A DNA stretch of 64,000 nt from an uncultured Verrucomicrobiota bacterium. GTDB taxonomy: Bacteria; Verrucomicrobiota; Verrucomicrobiia; Limisphaerales; VHCN01. Made by a program: the position numbers and the translations under genes. Where the stretch lies: NCBI GenBank assembly GCA_964589935.1, contig CAZPVD010000001.1:352818-416817 (forward strand). The letters are read 5' to 3'. Every line of letters begins with the position of its first letter. The first letter of the stretch is position 1. The notes beneath the pieces were generated by a model, which saw only the letters and a program-made list of their open reading frames with translations, was not told the origin of the DNA and did no database searches. Below are positions 54,954 through 60,587 of the stretch, one piece after another.

Positions 54954-56456
54954 TCAGTCGCGGCCACCCGCGCTAAACGCTCCACCGCGCTGGTTGTTCA
55001 TCGCCCTCGCAAGCGTGAGCAGCGGGCCGGTGAAGAACGTCGTGACCAGCGCCATCAGCACGAGCATCGCGAAGATGCGCGGTGAAAGGATGCCGAGGTC
55101 GTAGCCGATGTTCAACGCGATGAGTTCGATGAGGCCGCGTGTGTTCATCAGCGCACCGAGCGCGAAGGAATCGTTCCAGTTCATGCCCGTGCATCGCGCC
55201 GTGAGCATGGTGCCGCCGAGCTTGCCGAATGTCGCGAGTGCGACGATGCCGAGGCAGGTGAGCCAGCCGCCCGCGTCGTTTAGCAGGCCGATTTGTGTCC
55301 GCAATCCGGTGAAGACGAAGAACAGCGGCAGCAGGAAAACCGAGCTGAAGTTCTCGATTCGCACGCTGAGCCGGTGACGAAACTCGCCGTGCGCGGGCAT
55401 CACCACGCCGGCAAGAAACGCGCCGAACAACGGGTGGATGCCGATGATTTCCGTCGCAAGTGCGCTCGCGAGCACAAGCCCCAGCACGAATGCCAGCACG
55501 CCCTTGCCCGGCGATTCAGCGTTGAGCGCTTCATCACCGATCCATCGTTCCAAACGCGGCCGGATCACCAGCAGCATGACGGACACGAAAACAATCACCA
55601 AAGCAATCGTGAGCACCGAGCCAGACAGCGCGTCCGTCTTCACGATGGCCACAACAAACGCCAGGATGCACCACGCCGCCACGTCGCCAGCCGCCGCGCA
55701 TGTGAGCGCCGTGCTGCCCAGCGGCGTCTTGGACATGCCTCGTTCTTGCAAAATTCTCGCGAGCACCGGAAACGCCGTGATGCTCATGGAAATTCCCATG
55801 AACAGTGCGAAGGCCGTGAAGGATGTGCCTGGTGTTGCCAGTGTCGAAAACAAAAACAGCGCCGCCACCGTGCCGAGAAAATACGGGAACGCGATGCTCA
55901 TCTGGCTTACCAGCACGGCAGTTCGCGCCTGATGACGGAGGTGGGTCACGTCGAGTTCCATTCCAATCGCGAACATGAACAGGCAGACACCGATTTGACT
56001 CAGCAACTTGAGCGTGCCCAACGATGCCACGGGAAAGACGAAACCGAACACATCCGGCGCAAGCCAGCCAAGCAGTGACGGACCGAGCACAATGCCCGCG
56101 GCCATCTCGCCGACCACCGCGGGCTGGCCCATGCGCGCGAAAGCCGCGCCGAAAATCCGGGCCGTTGCGATGATGACGATCAACTGGAAGAACAGCCGGC
56201 TCAACGGCTCGTCCAGATTCGATTTCAGGCCGGAAAAAGCCCCTTGCTGCGCGATCACTTTCTTTGCCGTCGCCGGAAACGTTTCCAAAAGCTTGGAGAT
56301 TTTTGCTTCAACCGGCGCGGGGGCGACGAGCGTCTGCCCGTGCCGCAAAATGAGGCCGATGCCCAGCCCGAAGACCAGCAGCACCGAGATGTAGATGAGA
56401 AGGTTCCTGTTCAAATGCCGTGTCGCCGGAGTTGATAACAGCAACCGCGCCAGCAT
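54954..56456 (-). CDS. cation:proton antiporter (CPA2, Kef/NapA-like Na_H exchanger fold)
   Basis: The track ORF (54954-58193, 1079 aa) is a long antisense run-on. The transporter begins at the ATG at 56456 (MLARLLLSTPATRHLNRNLLIYISVLLVF...). It has ~12 TM helices with GEMAAGIVLGPS, FMFAIGMELD and TAFPVLARIL. Confidence 0.85.
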   Translation of the reverse strand: MLARLLLSTPATRHLNRNLLIYISVLLVFGLGIGLILRHGQTLVAPAPVEAKISKLLETFPATAKKVIAQQGAFSGLKSNLDEPLSRLFFQLIVIIATARIFGAAFARMGQPAVVGEMAAGIVLGPSLLGWLAPDVFGFVFPVASLGTLKLLSQIGVCLFMFAIGMELDVTHLRHQARTAVLVSQMSIAFPYFLGTVAALFLFSTLATPGTSFTAFALFMGISMSITAFPVLARILQERGMSKTPLGSTALTCAAAGDVAAWCILAFVVAIVKTDALSGSVLTIALVIVFVSVMLLVIRPRLERWIGDEALNAESPGKGVLAFVLGLVLASALATEIIGIHPLFGAFLAGVVMPAHGEFRHRLSVRIENFSSVFLLPLFFVFTGLRTQIGLLNDAGGWLTCLGIVALATFGKLGGTMLTARCTGMNWNDSFALGALMNTRGLIELIALNIGYDLGILSPRIFAMLVLMALVTTFFTGPLLTLARAMNNQRGGAFSAGGRD

Positions 56457-56544
56457 GTCCACCGCGACCGCTCGGTCCCGGCAGACGATGAAACTTCCAC
56501 TCGCCATGCAGCGCCAGTTTCGCCTAAGCTCCCCGCCCTGATTC

Positions 56545-56622
56545 GGTAGGGACGCGCTGCGGTGCGTCCTTGCTTTCTCCGCAGTCGGCACCGTGATGGA
56601 CGCGGAGCACCGCGTCCCTACC
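56545..56622. repeat. REP-like inverted repeat in the alaS leader
   Basis: Arms GGTAGGGACGCGCTGCGGTGCGTCC (56545-56569) and GGACGCGGAGCACCGCGTCCCTACC (56598-56622). The outer 12 bp are perfectly complementary. The repeat ends 11 nt before the alaS ATG. Confidence 0.6.
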
Positions 56623-56633
56623 GGACACATCGC

Positions 56634-59600
56634 ATGATGACCAGCACGCAAATCCGCCAGTCGTTCCTCGACTTCTTCAAGTCGAAGCAGCACACCATCG
56701 TCCCCTCGTCCAGCCTCATGCCGGACAGCCCGAACCTGCTCTTCACCAACGCCGGCATGAACCAGTTCGTGCCCATCTTCCTCAACGAGACCAAGTGCCC
56801 CTACTCGCCCGGCCGCGCCGCCGACACGCAAAAGTGCATCCGCGCCGGCGGCAAGCACAACGACCTCGATGACGTCGGCCTCGACACCTACCACCACACG
56901 TTCTTCGAGATGCTCGGCAACTGGTCCTTCGGCGACTACTTCAAGCGCGAGGCCATCAGTTGGGCGTGGGAGCTGGTCATCGAAGTCTGGAAGTTCCCGC
57001 CGCAGCGCCTCTACGCGACGGTCTATTGCCCCGACAAAACCAAGGGCGACCCCAGCGAGTTCGATCAGGAGGCGTGGAACTTCTGGGCCGAGAAATTCCG
57101 CTCCGTCGGCCTCGACCCCGCCGTCCACATCGTCAACGGCAACAAGAAAGACAACTTCTGGATGATGGGCGACACCGGCCCGTGCGGCCCGTGCTCCGAA
57201 CTCCACGTGGACCTCACGCCCGCCGGCGACACCCGCGGCCTGCTGGTCAACAAAGGCACCGCCGAGTGCATCGAGATTTGGAACCTCGTCTTCATCCAGT
57301 TCAACGCGAACGCCGACGGCACCTTCAGCCCGCTCCCGGCCAAGCATGTGGACACCGGCATGGGCTTCGAGCGCGTGACTAGCATCATCCAAGGCACCAA
57401 GAACTTCACCGACTTCGCCAACGCGAAGATTTCCAACTACGAGACCGACATCTTCCGCCCCATTTTCGACGAGCTGGGGCAGATGAGCGGGAAGAAATAC
57501 GGCAGCACGCTGCCGCAGGGGAGCGCGACCGTCCCGGTCGCCCCGGTCGGCGTCCCGCCGACCGGTCCCACGCGCACGACGAATCCGATTGCGCCATCCA
57601 CTTCCTACGCGCCCGAGTCCGCTGCGCGGGACGCGCAGCAGGGCGACCGGGACGGTCGCGCTCCCCAGGCGATAGCGCCCCAATCGCAAGTTCCCCAAGT
57701 CACTTATTACAAACGCCGCCTTCCGCACTTCGAGCGTCCGTGGGCCAAATACATGGTCAGCTTCACGACGCGCGAGCGGAAGCAGCTCTCCGAGGCGGCG
57801 CGCGCGGTCGTGCTCAAGAGCCTGCTCTTCGGCCACGAGCAGCGTCGCTATCAGATGTATGCCGCGTGTGTCATGCCCGACCACGTTCACTTTCTGTTTG
57901 AGCCGCAAATCAAGGAGCAGGACAAGGACGGCCAGCCCGTGTTCTGGCCGCTCGCCGAGTTGATGCATTCGATCAAGTCTTTCACCGCGCACGAAATCAA
58001 CAAGCTGGAGAAGACCACGGGCCAGGTGTGGGAGAACGAATCGTTCGACCGGATGATTCGCGGCGACGCCGACCTCGAAGAAAAATTCCACTACATCTGT
58101 CGCAACCCATGGGACTCCGGCGTCGCTCCCCTCACCGAGAACTACCGCTGGCTCTGGACACCCGACGCCATCGCCGAGGAGAAGCAAAGTCACGAAACAA
58201 CCAAGAGCGCGACCGTTCTAGAAAAGGGGAGCGCGACCGTCCCGGTCGCTCCGGTCGGCGTCCCGCCGACCGATTCTTCGCGCGGGGGCGCGGCGAGATT
58301 GTCAACAGTTCTGACTTCCCACGCGCCAGGGGCTGTTGCGCGGGACGCGCAACAGAGCGACCGGGACGGTCGCGCTCCCCAAACGTCCGCTCCCCATGCG
58401 GAGCAAATCCAGATCGACATCGCCTTTCGCGTCATCGGCGACCATATCCGCACGTTGAGCTTCGCCATCGCGGATGGCATCCAGCCGGGCAACACCGACC
58501 GCAACTACGTCCTGCGCCGCATCCTGCGCCGCGCGGTGCGCTACGGCCGCACGCTCGGCTTCCACGAGCCGTTTTTTTACAAGCTCGTGGACGTGCTCGC
58601 CGCGACGATGGGCGATGTCTTCCCCGAAATCCGCACCCGCCAGCAGCACGTTAAGGATGTGCTCAAGCTGGAGGAGGAGAGTTTTAACAAGACGTTGGAT
58701 GCTGGAATCGCTCTGTTTGAGGAAGTGATTCGTCTGGAGAAGACGTTGAGAGAATTAGTCGAAAATTTGGTCCCACACATCGAGAAGATTGAAATTGTGG
58801 CGGCGAAGAGCTTTGGAACATCCGAGGCGAGCCTACAATCGTTGAACGACATCTACACAGATGTCCAAGTTGTAGCCGGAGAAGTTAGAGGATTGAACCG
58901 CGATCTCTGGTTCAAAATGGCGGAAAAGGAAGAGCGGAGTTTAGTCGAAGCTGCACAGCAGTTGCTAAACATCGTCAACACCCTCTTCGATGAGTCAGTT
59001 CCTGTTTCTGTTCGGGAGGCATTTGCGAATGAGGCGGAAACTCACATCGCTTCTATCCGCACAGGGCTAGTGACCATCGCAAAAAGACCGAATGAGTTTC
59101 GCAGCAGTGCGGCATTCGTTCTCTACGACACCTACGGCTTCCCCCTCGACCTCACCGAGTTGATGGCCCGCGAACGTGGCCTGGCCGTGGACGTGGCCGG
59201 CTTCAACGCCTTGATGGAGGAGCAAAAGGCCCGCGCCCGTGCCGCGCAGAAGAAGACCGTCATCGAGCTGTCCCAAATCGAGACCAAGACGCCCACGCGC
59301 TTCCTCGGCTACGACGCGCTGGAGACGCCCGCGCGCGTGCTCGAAGTCGTCGGCCTCAAGGACAAGACCGCCGTGGTGCTCGACACCTCCACCTGCTACG
59401 CCGAGATGGGCGGCCAGCTCGGCGACACGGGCGAAATCCTCCACGTCCCGGTAGCAGCCGACGTGAGTCGGCTCAAACTCTCAGATGGAGCGGACTTACG
59501 TCCGCTGCTACGCGTCACGAACACGCAGAAGTCCGGCAACACCTGGCTGCATTTCGTAGAAGGCGACGAGCTTCCCGCCACGGGAGACACCGTGGTTCTC

Positions 59601-60587
59601 CGGGTGAACAAATCGCGCCGCGATGCGATCCAGCGCCACCACACCGTCACGCACCTGTTGCACTGGGCCTTGCACGAGGTCGTGGGCCAGGAAGCCTCGC
59701 AGAAAGGCTCCTTCGTCGGGCCGGACAAGCTGACCTTCGACTTCAACAGCGCCGCGCTCACGCCCGCGCAGGTCGCGGACATCGAGAAGCTCGTCAACGA
59801 GCGCATCGTCGAAAACGCCGGTGTCTCGTGGACCGAAGTCCCGCACGCCGACGTGAAGTCGCGCAAGGACGTGATGCAGTTCTTCGGCGACAAATACGGC
59901 GACACCGTGCGCGTCGTGCAGATCGGCGGCCACGCCACGAAGCTCGACGGCTACAGCATGGAACTCTGCGGCGGCACGCACACGCGCGCGACCGGCGAGA
60001 TCGGCCTCTTCCGCATCGTCGGCGAGAACGCGATTGCCGCCGGCGTGCGCCGCATCGAAGCCGTCGCCGGCCTCACCGCCTTCGACGCGATGCGCCTGGA
60101 CCGCGAGTTGATCCGCACCGTGGCCGGCAAGGTGAATTCCCCCATCCACGAACTGGAAAAGAAGATCGAGTTGGTGCTCGCGCACCAGAAGGAGCTGGAG
60201 AAGGCGCTCAAGACCTCCATCGCGCGCAACGCCGCGCAGACCGCCGCGTGGTTGCTCACGCGCGTGACGGAAGTGAACGGCATCCAGCTCATCACGCAGG
60301 GTTTCCCGGACGGCGACACGGAATATCTGCAAGCCGTGGTGGACGCGCTCAAGAGCCATTTCAAGGGCGTCATCGTCCTCGGCGGCGCGGCAAATGGCGC
60401 GGTGGCGCTGGTCGCGGCCGTTTCGCCGGAGTTCACTGCGAAGATTCAAGCGGGCAAAATCATCCAGCAGATCGCGCCCATCGTCGGCGGCAAGGGCGGC
60501 GGCAAGCCCGACAACGCCCGCGGCGGCGGCAAGGACGCCAGCAAGCTCGACGCAGCGCTGGCAAAGGTGAAGGAGTTGGTCGTCTGA
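56634..60587 (+). CDS. alaS: alanine--tRNA ligase carrying three in-frame insertions (1317 aa versus ~880 canonical)
   Basis: Start MMTSTQIRQSFLDFFKSKQHTIVPSSSL at 56634 (the track ORF starts at 56562). AlaRS motifs FTNAGMNQF, HHTFFEMLGNWSFGDYFK, DTGMGFERV, AFRVIGDHIRT, LYDTYGFPLDLT, editing-site HTVTHLLHWAL...CGGTH, and C-terminal GGKGGGKPDNARGGG. Confidence 0.9.
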   Translation: MMTSTQIRQSFLDFFKSKQHTIVPSSSLMPDSPNLLFTNAGMNQFVPIFLNETKCPYSPGRAADTQKCIRAGGKHNDLDDVGLDTYHHTFFEMLGNWSFGDYFKREAISWAWELVIEVWKFPPQRLYATVYCPDKTKGDPSEFDQEAWNFWAEKFRSVGLDPAVHIVNGNKKDNFWMMGDTGPCGPCSELHVDLTPAGDTRGLLVNKGTAECIEIWNLVFIQFNANADGTFSPLPAKHVDTGMGFERVTSIIQGTKNFTDFANAKISNYETDIFRPIFDELGQMSGKKYGSTLPQGSATVPVAPVGVPPTGPTRTTNPIAPSTSYAPESAARDAQQGDRDGRAPQAIAPQSQVPQVTYYKRRLPHFERPWAKYMVSFTTRERKQLSEAARAVVLKSLLFGHEQRRYQMYAACVMPDHVHFLFEPQIKEQDKDGQPVFWPLAELMHSIKSFTAHEINKLEKTTGQVWENESFDRMIRGDADLEEKFHYICRNPWDSGVAPLTENYRWLWTPDAIAEEKQSHETTKSATVLEKGSATVPVAPVGVPPTDSSRGGAARLSTVLTSHAPGAVARDAQQSDRDGRAPQTSAPHAEQIQIDIAFRVIGDHIRTLSFAIADGIQPGNTDRNYVLRRILRRAVRYGRTLGFHEPFFYKLVDVLAATMGDVFPEIRTRQQHVKDVLKLEEESFNKTLDAGIALFEEVIRLEKTLRELVENLVPHIEKIEIVAAKSFGTSEASLQSLNDIYTDVQVVAGEVRGLNRDLWFKMAEKEERSLVEAAQQLLNIVNTLFDESVPVSVREAFANEAETHIASIRTGLVTIAKRPNEFRSSAAFVLYDTYGFPLDLTELMARERGLAVDVAGFNALMEEQKARARAAQKKTVIELSQIETKTPTRFLGYDALETPARVLEVVGLKDKTAVVLDTSTCYAEMGGQLGDTGEILHVPVAADVSRLKLSDGADLRPLLRVTNTQKSGNTWLHFVEGDELPATGDTVVLRVNKSRRDAIQRHHTVTHLLHWALHEVVGQEASQKGSFVGPDKLTFDFNSAALTPAQVADIEKLVNERIVENAGVSWTEVPHADVKSRKDVMQFFGDKYGDTVRVVQIGGHATKLDGYSMELCGGTHTRATGEIGLFRIVGENAIAAGVRRIEAVAGLTAFDAMRLDRELIRTVAGKVNSPIHELEKKIELVLAHQKELEKALKTSIARNAAQTAAWLLTRVTEVNGIQLITQGFPDGDTEYLQAVVDALKSHFKGVIVLGGAANGAVALVAAVSPEFTAKIQAGKIIQQIAPIVGGKGGGKPDNARGGGKDASKLDAALAKVKELVV
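57518..57666 (+). repeat. left REPIN-like hairpin pair
   Basis: Arm 57518-57558 is GGGGAGCGCGACCGTCCCGGTCGCCCCGGTCGGCGTCCCGC. Arm 57626-57666 is its imperfect reverse complement (first 26 nt perfect, ~35/41 overall). The loop is 67 nt. Confidence 0.8.
58226..58380 (+). repeat. right REPIN-like hairpin pair (direct copy of the left one)
   Basis: Arms 58226-58266 and 58340-58380 are 40/41 and 39/41 identical to the left-hand arms, in the same orientation. The loop is 73 nt. Confidence 0.8.
58731..59106 (+). other. ~125-codon in-frame insertion of low-GC DNA in the alaS tRNA-recognition (helical) domain
   Basis: It lies between conserved ...LDAGIALFEEVI and AAFVLYDTYGFPLDLT, where canonical AlaRS has only ~15-25 residues. 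Hand-counted GC is 201/420 (47.9%) for 58681-59100 versus 58-68% in the four flanking 60-nt lines. Confidence 0.7.
59451..59511. repeat. 61-bp nested palindrome (REPIN-like doublet) in-frame within alaS
   Basis: GTAGCAGCCGACGTGAGTCGGCTC...GAGCGGACTTACGTCCGCTGCTAC. The halves are 21/24 complementary and each half is itself a hairpin (AGCCGAC-GTGA-GTCGGCT and AGCGGAC-TTAC-GTCCGCT). It encodes ~VAADVSRLKLSDGADLRPLL. Confidence 0.7.

Follow-up and report, generated by a model that had tools for sequence, protein, structure and literature searches.

An in-frame RAYT-type transposase cassette within alanyl-tRNA synthetase genes of uncultured Verrucomicrobiota

REP-associated tyrosine transposases (RAYTs or TnpA-REP) are Y1 transposases that live together with short palindromic repeats (REPs, or REPINs when arranged as pairs). 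Classical RAYTs are described as stably inherited in a vertical manner at a single locus. Units composed of a transposase and its terminal repeats have been termed REPtrons and TIRtrons (Di Nocera et al. 2013, PMC3733652), and the REPtrons, in which a Y1 HUH enzyme with HuH and Y-x3-NP motifs is combined with REPs or REPINs, are among the closest described relatives of the element reported here (Nunvar 2010; Bertels & Rainey 2011; Ton-Hoang 2012; Messing 2012, PDB 4ER8). The Y-x3-NP motif distinguishes class 2 of the Y1 enzymes (TnpA-REP) from class 1 with Y-x3-Q (Quentin et al. 2018, PMC6006769). In TIRtrons a RAYT-like gene (TIRYT) is bracketed by long terminal inverted repeats with the consensus GGGGWSAS, which can overlap the ends of the open reading frame (ORF; PMC3733652) and in some cases occur as dimers in families of moderate abundance (PMC3733652). 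TIRYTs correspond to subclass 2.1 of Quentin et al. 2018 (PMC6006769). The published TIRYTs are separate genes for long proteins, most of which possess a C-terminal helix-turn-helix extension (PMC6006769). Palindromic repeats can also lie in-frame within coding genes, as do the Rickettsia palindromic elements (RPEs; Ogata 2000) and the intragenic REPs of tRNA synthetase and repair genes (Di Nocera et al. 2013, PMC3733652). We analysed a stretch of 64,000 nt (hereafter the window) from an uncultured Verrucomicrobiota bacterium of the Limisphaerales (GenBank assembly GCA_964589935.1, contig CAZPVD010000001.1, positions 352,818 to 416,817), in which a cassette made of a RAYT-type transposase domain and two flanking hairpins lies in-frame within alaS, the gene for alanyl-tRNA synthetase (AlaRS). 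An earlier note, made from the letters of the window alone, had drawn attention to this arrangement.

The alaS ORF occupies positions 56634-60587 on the plus strand and encodes 1317 aa plus stop without interruption, as the earlier note had read it. The frame is open from 56562, and homologues start with MMTSTQ, which corresponds to 56634. Profile and architecture agree on the identity of the product: in an NCBIfam scan the alaS equivalog TIGR00344 scored 797.3 bits (cut-off 457), and Pfam recognised tRNA-synt_2c in three stretches, tRNA_SAD and DHHA1, with Y1_Tnp between the stretches. The catalytic part aligns to the solved AlaRS fragments of human, E. coli and Aquifex. These alignments place the first interruption between human residues ~295 and 296, in the variable loop between catalytic core and tRNA-recognition part to which it had been assigned before, and the second between human residues ~416 and 429. 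The aminoacylation core (aa 1-295, 56634-57518), as delimited by alignment to AlaRS structures, runs to ...KKYGSTLPQ and is 94-95% identical to that of RAYT-free relatives. It is followed by insert A (57519-58397, plus strand), which comprises hairpin, transposase and hairpin; it is co-linear with the host frame, and the lack of stop codons previously counted over ~288 codons holds for all of its 293 codons. AlaRS resumes at AEQIQIDIAFRVIGDH... with the tRNA-recognition part up to site B (58398-58742, from alignments). Two further inserts, B and C, lie downstream, and removal of all three leaves a core of 886 aa. Together the inserts amount to 431 codons and therefore account for the excess length of alaS, in line with the earlier estimate of ~435 codons over an AlaRS of ~880 aa.

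Both ends of the transposase cassette are formed by REPIN-type hairpins. The left hairpin (57518-57666, 149 nt) consists of two inverted copies of a repeat designated T1, has the 26-nt termini GGGGAGCGCGACCGTCCCGGTCGCCC and is translated as GSATVPVAPVGVPPT...ARDAQQGDRDGRAP. The right hairpin (58226-58380, 155 nt), whose arms directly copy the left one, is translated as GSATVPVAPVGVPPT...ARDAQQSDRDGRAP. As inverted-repeat pairs they extend over 57518-57575/57609-57666 and 58226-58288/58318-58380; the outer stem is a perfect 26 bp in each and the 26-nt termini are the same in both. The two directly oriented hairpin pairs, which had been described with arms of 41 nt, were thus recovered, and as direct copies the left and right arms are identical at 47/48 and 43/45 positions. 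Folded as single-stranded DNA, the left hairpin reached -66.1 kcal/mol (z -8.9) and the right one -72.9 kcal/mol (z -11.7), and for neither did any of 200 shuffles fold as well. A 24-nt repeat core occurs four times in the window (expected 0.00), always in the alaS hairpins, and the cassette repeat termini read GGGGAGCGCG. The palindromes flank the transposase in inverted orientation, as is typical of RAYTs, and the same holds for two further loci, L121 and L122. A host hairpin just upstream of the insertion point (GGCAGCACGCTGCC) was considered as a target signal and rejected, because empty-site relatives use non-palindromic codons for the same peptide. No nucleotide preceding the repeat is conserved between different copies.

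Between the hairpins lies the transposase domain (aa 356-512, 57699-58169, plus strand). It shows the N-terminal motif YYKRRLPHF (57705-57731), the HUH motif HVH (aa 417-419, 57882-57890) and the catalytic tyrosine motif YICRNP (Y487, 58092-58109), all on the plus strand and read from the translation. The last of these is of the Y-x3-NP type, which is conserved at 95% or more in embedded copies and assigns the enzyme to class 2 (TnpA-REP). Pfam Y1_Tnp (PF01797) matched with 28.7 bits (gathering cut-off 23) and the NCBIfam family REP_Tyr_transpos (NF047646) with 74.9 bits, profile positions 4-145 of 146 being aligned; the IS200 model scored only 20.5 bits. An AlphaFold (AF2) model built from 89 sequences had a mean predicted local distance difference test (pLDDT) of 85.6, with a core above 90. 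The best 30 Foldseek matches in the PDB were all IS200/IS605 or REP transposases (E 7.6e-06 to 1.2e-03), and the longest and best-superposed one was 4er8_A, E. coli TnpA-REP with a REP hairpin (TM-score 0.60/0.67, root mean square deviation 3.3 Å, 148 columns). A PDB sequence search with the domain gave nothing relevant, and the relation to 4ER8 and IS608 emerged by fold comparison only. Profile score above the gathering cut-off, HuH motif, catalytic tyrosine and HUH fold concur in placing the domain in the Y1 HUH superfamily, and the Y1 transposase of the RAYT class that the earlier note had proposed at 57705-58165 is thereby confirmed by Pfam and by fold. The domain ends about 15 aa past the tyrosine helix and has a core of ~160 aa; a C-terminal helix-turn-helix extension (Bac_DnaA_C, HTH_23 or HTH_28) is missing, since insert A matched Y1_Tnp only in a Pfam search at E <= 0.01.

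The cassette carries neither a start codon before its transposase nor a recognisable promoter. No in-frame ATG, GTG or TTG is present between ...STLPQ and YYKRR, in agreement with what had been read before, and no sigma-70-like site was found within the alaS gene. The internal Met of AKYMVSF is not conserved (relatives read KYAV, KYTV or IYHV) and therefore does not provide a family-wide start site. Two routes to the transposase had been envisaged previously; synthesis as part of AlaRS accords with the start-less frame, and initiation at the AKYMVSF Met does not accord with its variability. The short linker between left hairpin and domain (QAIAPQSQVPQ, 57667-57698, plus strand) likewise has no in-frame start codon, and the linker from the domain to the right hairpin (IAEEKQSHETTKSATVLEK, 58170-58225, plus strand) has a low pLDDT. 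When AlaRS residues 1-830 were modelled, pLDDT was 24-33 in the stretches encoded by the repeats (aa 295-354 and 518-587) and 81-89 in the transposase core. The junctions of insert A read ...LPQ/GSAT and ...APH/AEQ, and the fusion would accordingly contain junction peptides such as STLPQGSATVPVAPVGVPPT and DGRAPQTSAPHAEQIQIDIAFR. An intein was rejected because there was no Hint-family match in Pfam and the junction residues are not of the Cys/Ser/Thr and His-Asn type. A group I or group II intron or an IStron was rejected as well, an Rfam scan of 57300-58600 having given only sub-threshold generic long-hairpin matches. Apart from this, we observed that an ATG often directly precedes the repeat terminus (ATG followed by GGGAGCGCG, read MGSATVP), for example in P0127, P0130, P0135 and P0141 and in the dispersed copies L003, L013 and L094; the two copies in the window have CAG and AAG in its place. 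This ATG may belong to the end of the element or represent a latent start codon.

Both the enzyme and the ends of its repeats are under constraint. The His/His/Tyr triad is intact in 131 of 133 embedded copies (78/79 at the site of insert A, hereafter site A, and 53/53 at site B). In the comparison of the window with L096, the closest relative, whose RAYT is 93.6% identical, the ratio of non-synonymous to synonymous substitution rates (dN/dS) was 0.07 for the RAYT and 0.16, 0.20 and 0.30 for the N-terminal, middle and C-terminal parts of AlaRS; the corresponding values against L035 were 0.07 and 0.28, 0.13 and 0.27. These values indicate that the embedded enzyme is kept catalytically intact by selection. 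The hairpins of the window and L096 are identical at 24-26 of the terminal 26 nt and at 58-73% in their middles, and nearby synonymous sites are about 30-50% diverged, which indicates that the repeat termini are constrained as DNA.

The earlier note had treated the alaS insertion as a single case, and this view has to be abandoned. Homologues were ranked either in an order that enriches for fusions (whole-protein query) or by core similarity (886-aa query), so that the frequencies given here are no estimate of prevalence. The best 120 matches to the whole protein are 1084-1408 aa long and, where the organism is named, come from metagenome-assembled genomes (MAGs) of Verrucomicrobiota. Each of the 120 contains at least one full-length transposase domain, as judged by a hidden Markov model (HMM) made from 87 stand-alone relatives. 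In-frame RAYTs in AlaRS are thus recurrent, being present in at least 120 AlaRS clusters from Limisphaerales/Verrucomicrobiota MAGs, and many of them bear the JGI annotation 'alanyl-tRNA synthetase/REP element-mobilizing transposase RayT'. Placed along a profile of the AlaRS core, the large inserts cluster at three positions, ~294-307 for site A, 414 for site B and 558 for site C, and the AlaRS-adjoining transposase domains of all retrieved proteins are distributed over these sites as 79, 53 and 1.

The embedded transposases fall into at least six subfamilies, each with its own type of inverted repeat, and a tree of the transposases groups them by these repeat types. All copies have, on either side of the domain and in frame with it, peptides that are reverse-complement translations of each other. 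These are GSATVPVA... / ...RDGRAP in T1 (35 at site A), GSAPAPGA... / ...ARGGRAP in T2 (36 at site B), GSARVPRAV... / ...TRDACAP in T3 (5 at site A, 8 at site B), GEHTRPRV... / ...REGACAP in T4 (10 at site A), GAHAPSRV... / ...AREARALP in T5 (7 at site A, 1 at site C) and GTGYQPV... / ...GLVARST in T6 (9 at site A, 5 at site B), so that T3, T5 and T6 each occupy more than one site. As DNA, the repeats of all types examined share the beginning GGGGAGCGC. Short forms have a single arm on each side (P0145, P0169) and the window has a doublet, i.e. a REPIN-like hairpin, on each side. Eight AlaRS proteins (P0122, P0123, P0124, P0138, P0140, P0143, P0144 and P0185) carry two cassettes, and the two are of different repeat types in all eight, an arrangement by which recombination of identical repeats across an essential part of the gene would be avoided.

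AlaRS is not the only host. An exhaustive search of 1.84 billion representatives gave 4973 matches, and among the long ones the hosts were named by Pfam. Internal RAYT domains were found in RecG (P0358, P0361, P0382, P0450), PriA (P0416) and N6/N4 DNA methylases (P0420, P0442), and full RAYT domains in ValRS (P0425, P0457); fragments with domains of the CarB type (CPSase_L_D3) and the MetH type (S-methyl_trans) likewise carry a RAYT. One of the RecG examples is a complete ORF of 904 aa in an ordinary gene context, with 70-nt inverted arms that are 93% complementary. Stand-alone relatives of ~205 aa also exist. They consist of M plus 7-20 residues, GSARASRA..., the domain and ...AREARALP, which means that their repeats are translated too. 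One of them (L121, 3001-3618; JGI 3300053644, contig Ga0537298_0000001) was examined in its genomic context and lies inside an Amuc_1100-type PilM/secretin pilus operon; it overlaps the stop codon of the preceding gene with its start and is followed after 3 nt by the next gene. The premise of the earlier note that RAYTs are stand-alone genes in intergenic DNA therefore fails for this family, in which even a stand-alone member is translationally coupled in an operon. Since the stand-alone members are translated through their repeats as well, the family as a whole appears to share this read-through and, with it, a reliance on the host for transcription and translation.

A different picture emerged from AlaRS proteins related to the window by their core. 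In the search with the 886-aa core the nearest AlaRS were mostly 894-1050 aa long and without transposase; they come from Limisphaerales/Pedosphaera MAGs and are 79-89% identical. In the nearest of all (94-95% identical in the N-terminal segment and 88-89% in the core) site A is either empty, reading STLPKSGSTGDTEQEKVDIAF, or the cassette is at site B instead. On a neighbour-joining tree of the core, based like all our trees on p-distances, the clade of the window includes one other carrier at site A, with a different repeat type, three carriers at site B and many empty members. Conversely, the nearest transposases among the retrieved proteins (P0122 and P0180, 85% identical) sit in AlaRS that are 74-80% identical in the core, and within repeat types the distances of RAYT and AlaRS are only weakly correlated (Spearman 0.35 and 0.25). 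Such scattered occurrence on the AlaRS tree speaks against a purely vertical inheritance of the cassette, and the pattern of presence and absence fits repeated gain and loss, or transfer by recombination. The empty-site loop 'SGSTGDT' was considered as a possible excision footprint; its conservation in many relatives without RAYT favours an ancestral loop.

Two observations on close relatives may be added. In P0248-P0251, P0254, P0270 and P0306 site A is occupied, without any RAYT, by a domain of ~95 aa belonging to PF01035 (MGMT/alkyltransferase-like, DNA-binding), which apparently lacks the PCHR cysteine motif (it reads ...AWWRVVN...). In L096 (JACRJY010000206.1, minus strand, ~7285-7267) the left hairpin is missing, and the N-terminal part of AlaRS is out of frame with the RAYT and the C-terminal part (junction ACGCTCCCCGCGAAACAG). 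Collapse of a repeat in a short-read MAG, a deletion by microhomology or a truly split or dead alaS may account for this.

Repeats of the window's type are also found away from the transposase. A 21-nt core of T1 is present in at least 120 stretches of species-representative genomes, mostly Verrucomicrobiota MAGs and often on many contigs per genome; among the matches listed, only 7 of 120 stretches contain the transposase, each time adjoining alaS sequence. The nearest genome found, the groundwater Verrucomicrobia MAG JACRJY01 to which L096 belongs (RAYT 93.6% identical), possesses one alaS::RAYT locus and eight RAYT-less loci with elements of ~120-155 nt, whose termini are GGGGAGCGCG...CGCGCTCCCC. 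In these dispersed elements the left arm is the T1 repeat and the right arm a diverged variant. Such dispersal would be the pattern expected of a RAYT with a population of REPINs, with an imperfect match. The long stop-free frames around dispersed repeats are uninformative as to a preference for such sites, because random positions in these GC-rich loci are equally open. One dispersed locus (L103, ~896-1050 of JACRJY010000008.1) has a REPIN-like element with these termini that runs without a break into a class I synthetase motif (...WLTNIQDWCIS) immediately downstream; the element is apparently in-frame in a ValRS-like gene.

Taken together, these data make it likely, in our judgement, that the window contains a RAYT-type cassette without promoter or start codon which resides in a permissive surface loop (site A) of a functional alaS, is expressed within AlaRS and most probably acts in trans on dispersed repeats, its activity being predicted from sequence and fold. 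The cassette would be transcribed and translated solely as an internal domain of AlaRS. Its GC-rich repeats would have a double function: as DNA they would provide the hairpin and terminus signals recognised by such enzymes, and as protein they would form low-complexity, stop-free, disordered linkers, thanks to which the HUH domain of ~160 aa could fold by itself and leave AlaRS undisturbed. E. coli TnpA-REP reportedly acts as a monomer, a state that would suit an enzyme inserted as a domain into another protein. We infer that the fusion protein is the active form and that the embedded HUH domain would recognise repeat copies lacking a transposase and process them in trans by cleavage and joining, as has been proposed for RAYTs and REPINs. 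Embedding in an essential ORF could serve persistence, since it would shield the transposase from inactivation other than by missense changes: a frameshift, a nonsense mutation or an imprecise deletion would be lethal to the host.

Several points weigh against this proposal. The score for NF047646 narrowly misses the equivalog cut-off of 80, and the 5' GTAG (GT[AG]G) tag of classical REPs is missing at the feet of the hairpins. The rest of the 64-kb window has no further copy of transposase, alaS or repeats. The dispersed elements of JACRJY01 share only the left arm and a 10-nt terminus with the alaS hairpins, and for this reason the cognate link is suggestive rather than proven. The model of AlaRS with its insert (residues 1-830) is weak overall, with a mean pLDDT of 61. 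Moreover, RAYT and AlaRS show similar mean divergence within a repeat type (0.19-0.21), which also fits an old insertion followed by many losses, and the distribution of the cassette may be explained in this way too. Finally, strong purifying selection would be expected equally of a domain co-opted by the host. A domesticated module of this kind, in which the HUH domain would have taken on a function linked to AlaRS or to the host at large, for example the binding or cleavage of single-stranded nucleic acid or the detection of DNA damage, and would no longer serve the repeats, is in keeping with the dN/dS of 0.07 and the retained catalytic residues. It would also suit the wide occurrence of the RAYT-AlaRS arrangement, the fact that the hosts are mostly nucleic-acid enzymes (AlaRS, ValRS, RecG, PriA, DNA methylase) and the presence of another DNA-binding domain, PF01035, at site A of some relatives. 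We nevertheless consider it unlikely, because the closest AlaRS relatives have no cassette, six subfamilies with different repeats swap in the same loops, the repeat termini are conserved as DNA and dispersed without RAYT, and the same family also occurs as a stand-alone gene. Of the two readings offered in the earlier note, a mobile element hitch-hiking on AlaRS is therefore favoured by the patchiness, the subfamilies with cognate repeats, the other hosts and the dispersed repeats, and a domain domesticated by AlaRS is the less likely one.

It is also conceivable, if rather improbable, that the two enzymes are fused in the DNA and separate in the cell, the transposase being released by proteolysis of the linkers or made from a non-canonical internal start, with the fusion as a mere precursor. 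The predicted disorder of the linkers and the ATG directly before the left repeat in many relatives (MGSATVP) would suit such a scheme. Against it stands that no ATG, GTG or TTG precedes the N-terminal motif in the window and that relatives do not share the internal Met. AlaRS would moreover fall into two chains if both linkers were cut, and neither a protease site nor an intein motif was found. An inert passenger, that is, a dead relic which is tolerated in the loop and whose frame stays open for the sole reason that its interruption would destroy alaS, seems very improbable to us. Selection on alaS alone is enough to keep the frame open, and stop codons are few in GC-rich sequence, but upkeep of the frame leaves the dN/dS of 0.07 and the intact HUH/Tyr residues of 131/133 copies unexplained. 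We give hardly any credence to a pseudogene or an assembly artefact, meaning either a disrupted alaS backed by a second working copy or a chimeric join, even though L096 with its missing left hairpin and the frameshift at that junction could be cited for it. The parts of AlaRS are under purifying selection, so that the pseudogene envisaged earlier is not borne out, TIGR00344 scores far above its cut-off, and the same architecture recurs in independent JGI, ENA and NCBI assemblies, among them contigs of 0.6-2.3 Mb.

How does the alaS cassette, regarded as a mobile element expressed within AlaRS, compare with the systems described so far? It resembles the REPtrons in its Y1 HUH enzyme with HuH and Y-x3-NP, in a fold nearest to 4er8_A, in its flanking inverted palindromic repeats, which here are doublets forming long hairpins, and in the dispersal of the same repeat without transposase in genomes related to that of the window. 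Unlike RAYT/TnpA-REP, the cassette is not a stand-alone gene: it has neither start nor promoter and is read, its repeats included, as part of an essential ORF. Furthermore, these repeats begin with GGGGAGCGC and are devoid of the GTAG tag, several cassette subfamilies share one host gene, and their occurrence among close relatives is patchy. With the TIRtrons it has in common the repeat terminus, GGGGAGCG matching 7 of the 8 positions of GGGGWSAS, and repeats that lie within the reading frame in both embedded and stand-alone members. The cassette thus agrees with TIRYTs in its terminal repeats, but not with subclass 2.1 in respect of the helix-turn-helix, as it consists of a core of ~160 aa with no extra domain; it also differs in sitting inside another gene. 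The flanking hairpins, insert C and the ValRS-like L103 recall RPEs and intragenic REPs. There, however, the non-coding repeat stands alone, whereas here a unit of ~0.88 kb that codes for an enzyme is under selection. Inteins with homing endonucleases and IStrons (IS200/IS605-like elements combined with a group I intron) are likewise selfish elements within conserved essential genes, but the alaS insert has no splicing machinery and the element apparently stays in the mature protein.

RAYT/REPIN systems, TIRYTs with their TIRtrons and in-frame intragenic REPs have thus been described. What is apparently new is a whole transposase cassette placed in-frame in essential genes as a regular lifestyle, visible in automatic annotation and not analysed. 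No published description of a RAYT or other Y1 transposase inside alaS or another essential gene was found in a literature search which was thin on subscription journals and gives no proof of absence; the statement of the earlier note that none was known agrees with this, though the JGI annotation names such fusions. With some hesitation, and rating it at a little short of an even chance, we suggest that RAYT/TIRYT cassettes may represent an unnamed class of mobile elements, namely non-splicing, in-frame guest domains in surface loops of essential nucleic-acid enzymes (AlaRS, ValRS, RecG, PriA and others), whose terminal inverted repeats would act both as transposition signals and as linkers that render the insertion harmless and for which fusion to the host would be the sole route of expression. 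It is part of the same tentative suggestion that they could have reached the niche of inteins without protein splicing.

The remaining features of the locus concern the other inserts and the opposite strand. Insert B (58743-59093, plus strand; 117 codons, mostly helical) marks the second hot spot; it is not a RAYT here, relatives have a RAYT at the same site, and no Pfam or NCBIfam family was matched in profile scans. Site B is hypervariable in this lineage, with unrelated inserts of 0-170 aa or a RAYT cassette among AlaRS that are 88-89% identical in the core. Insert C (59442-59504, plus strand; 21 codons, HVPVAADVSRLKLSDGADLRP) occupies the third hot spot, core position 558. The 63 nt that encode it are a small palindromic repeat doublet with the ends GTAGCAGC...GCTGCTAC and two inner hairpins of 7 bp, an in-frame REP pair of the GTAG type. 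A mosaic or recombinant origin of alaS was considered and discarded, as there is no clear breakpoint and the C-terminal part is less conserved in every comparison. On the minus strand an ORF of 1079 aa (54954-58193) is antisense to the first half of alaS and reaches as far as the end of the RAYT domain. What looks like a real gene, for a membrane protein, upstream of alaS is confined to the 3' part of this ORF (below ~56400); the remainder is a stop-free antisense frame typical of GC-rich coding DNA.

RAYTs and REPINs pose a long-standing puzzle, as single-copy transposases which have persisted for a very long time and whose action and retention are still argued about. Part of the evidence may have lain in a blind spot, because surveys of Y1 proteins dropped over-long 'fusion' proteins as errors; in one large survey they were excluded as 'gene fusions or annotation errors' (PMC6006769). 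In the repeats of the alaS cassette, one and the same sequence has termini constrained as DNA and in addition encodes a peptide, which apparently serves as a flexible linker. AlaRS in turn has at least three loops that accept guest domains of 20 kDa, which is useful for synthetase engineering, and alaS::RAYT is a natural fusion protein for biochemistry. For the RAYT family itself, embedding in alaS would offer a concrete and testable mechanism of persistence: loss of the transposase would require a precise deletion.

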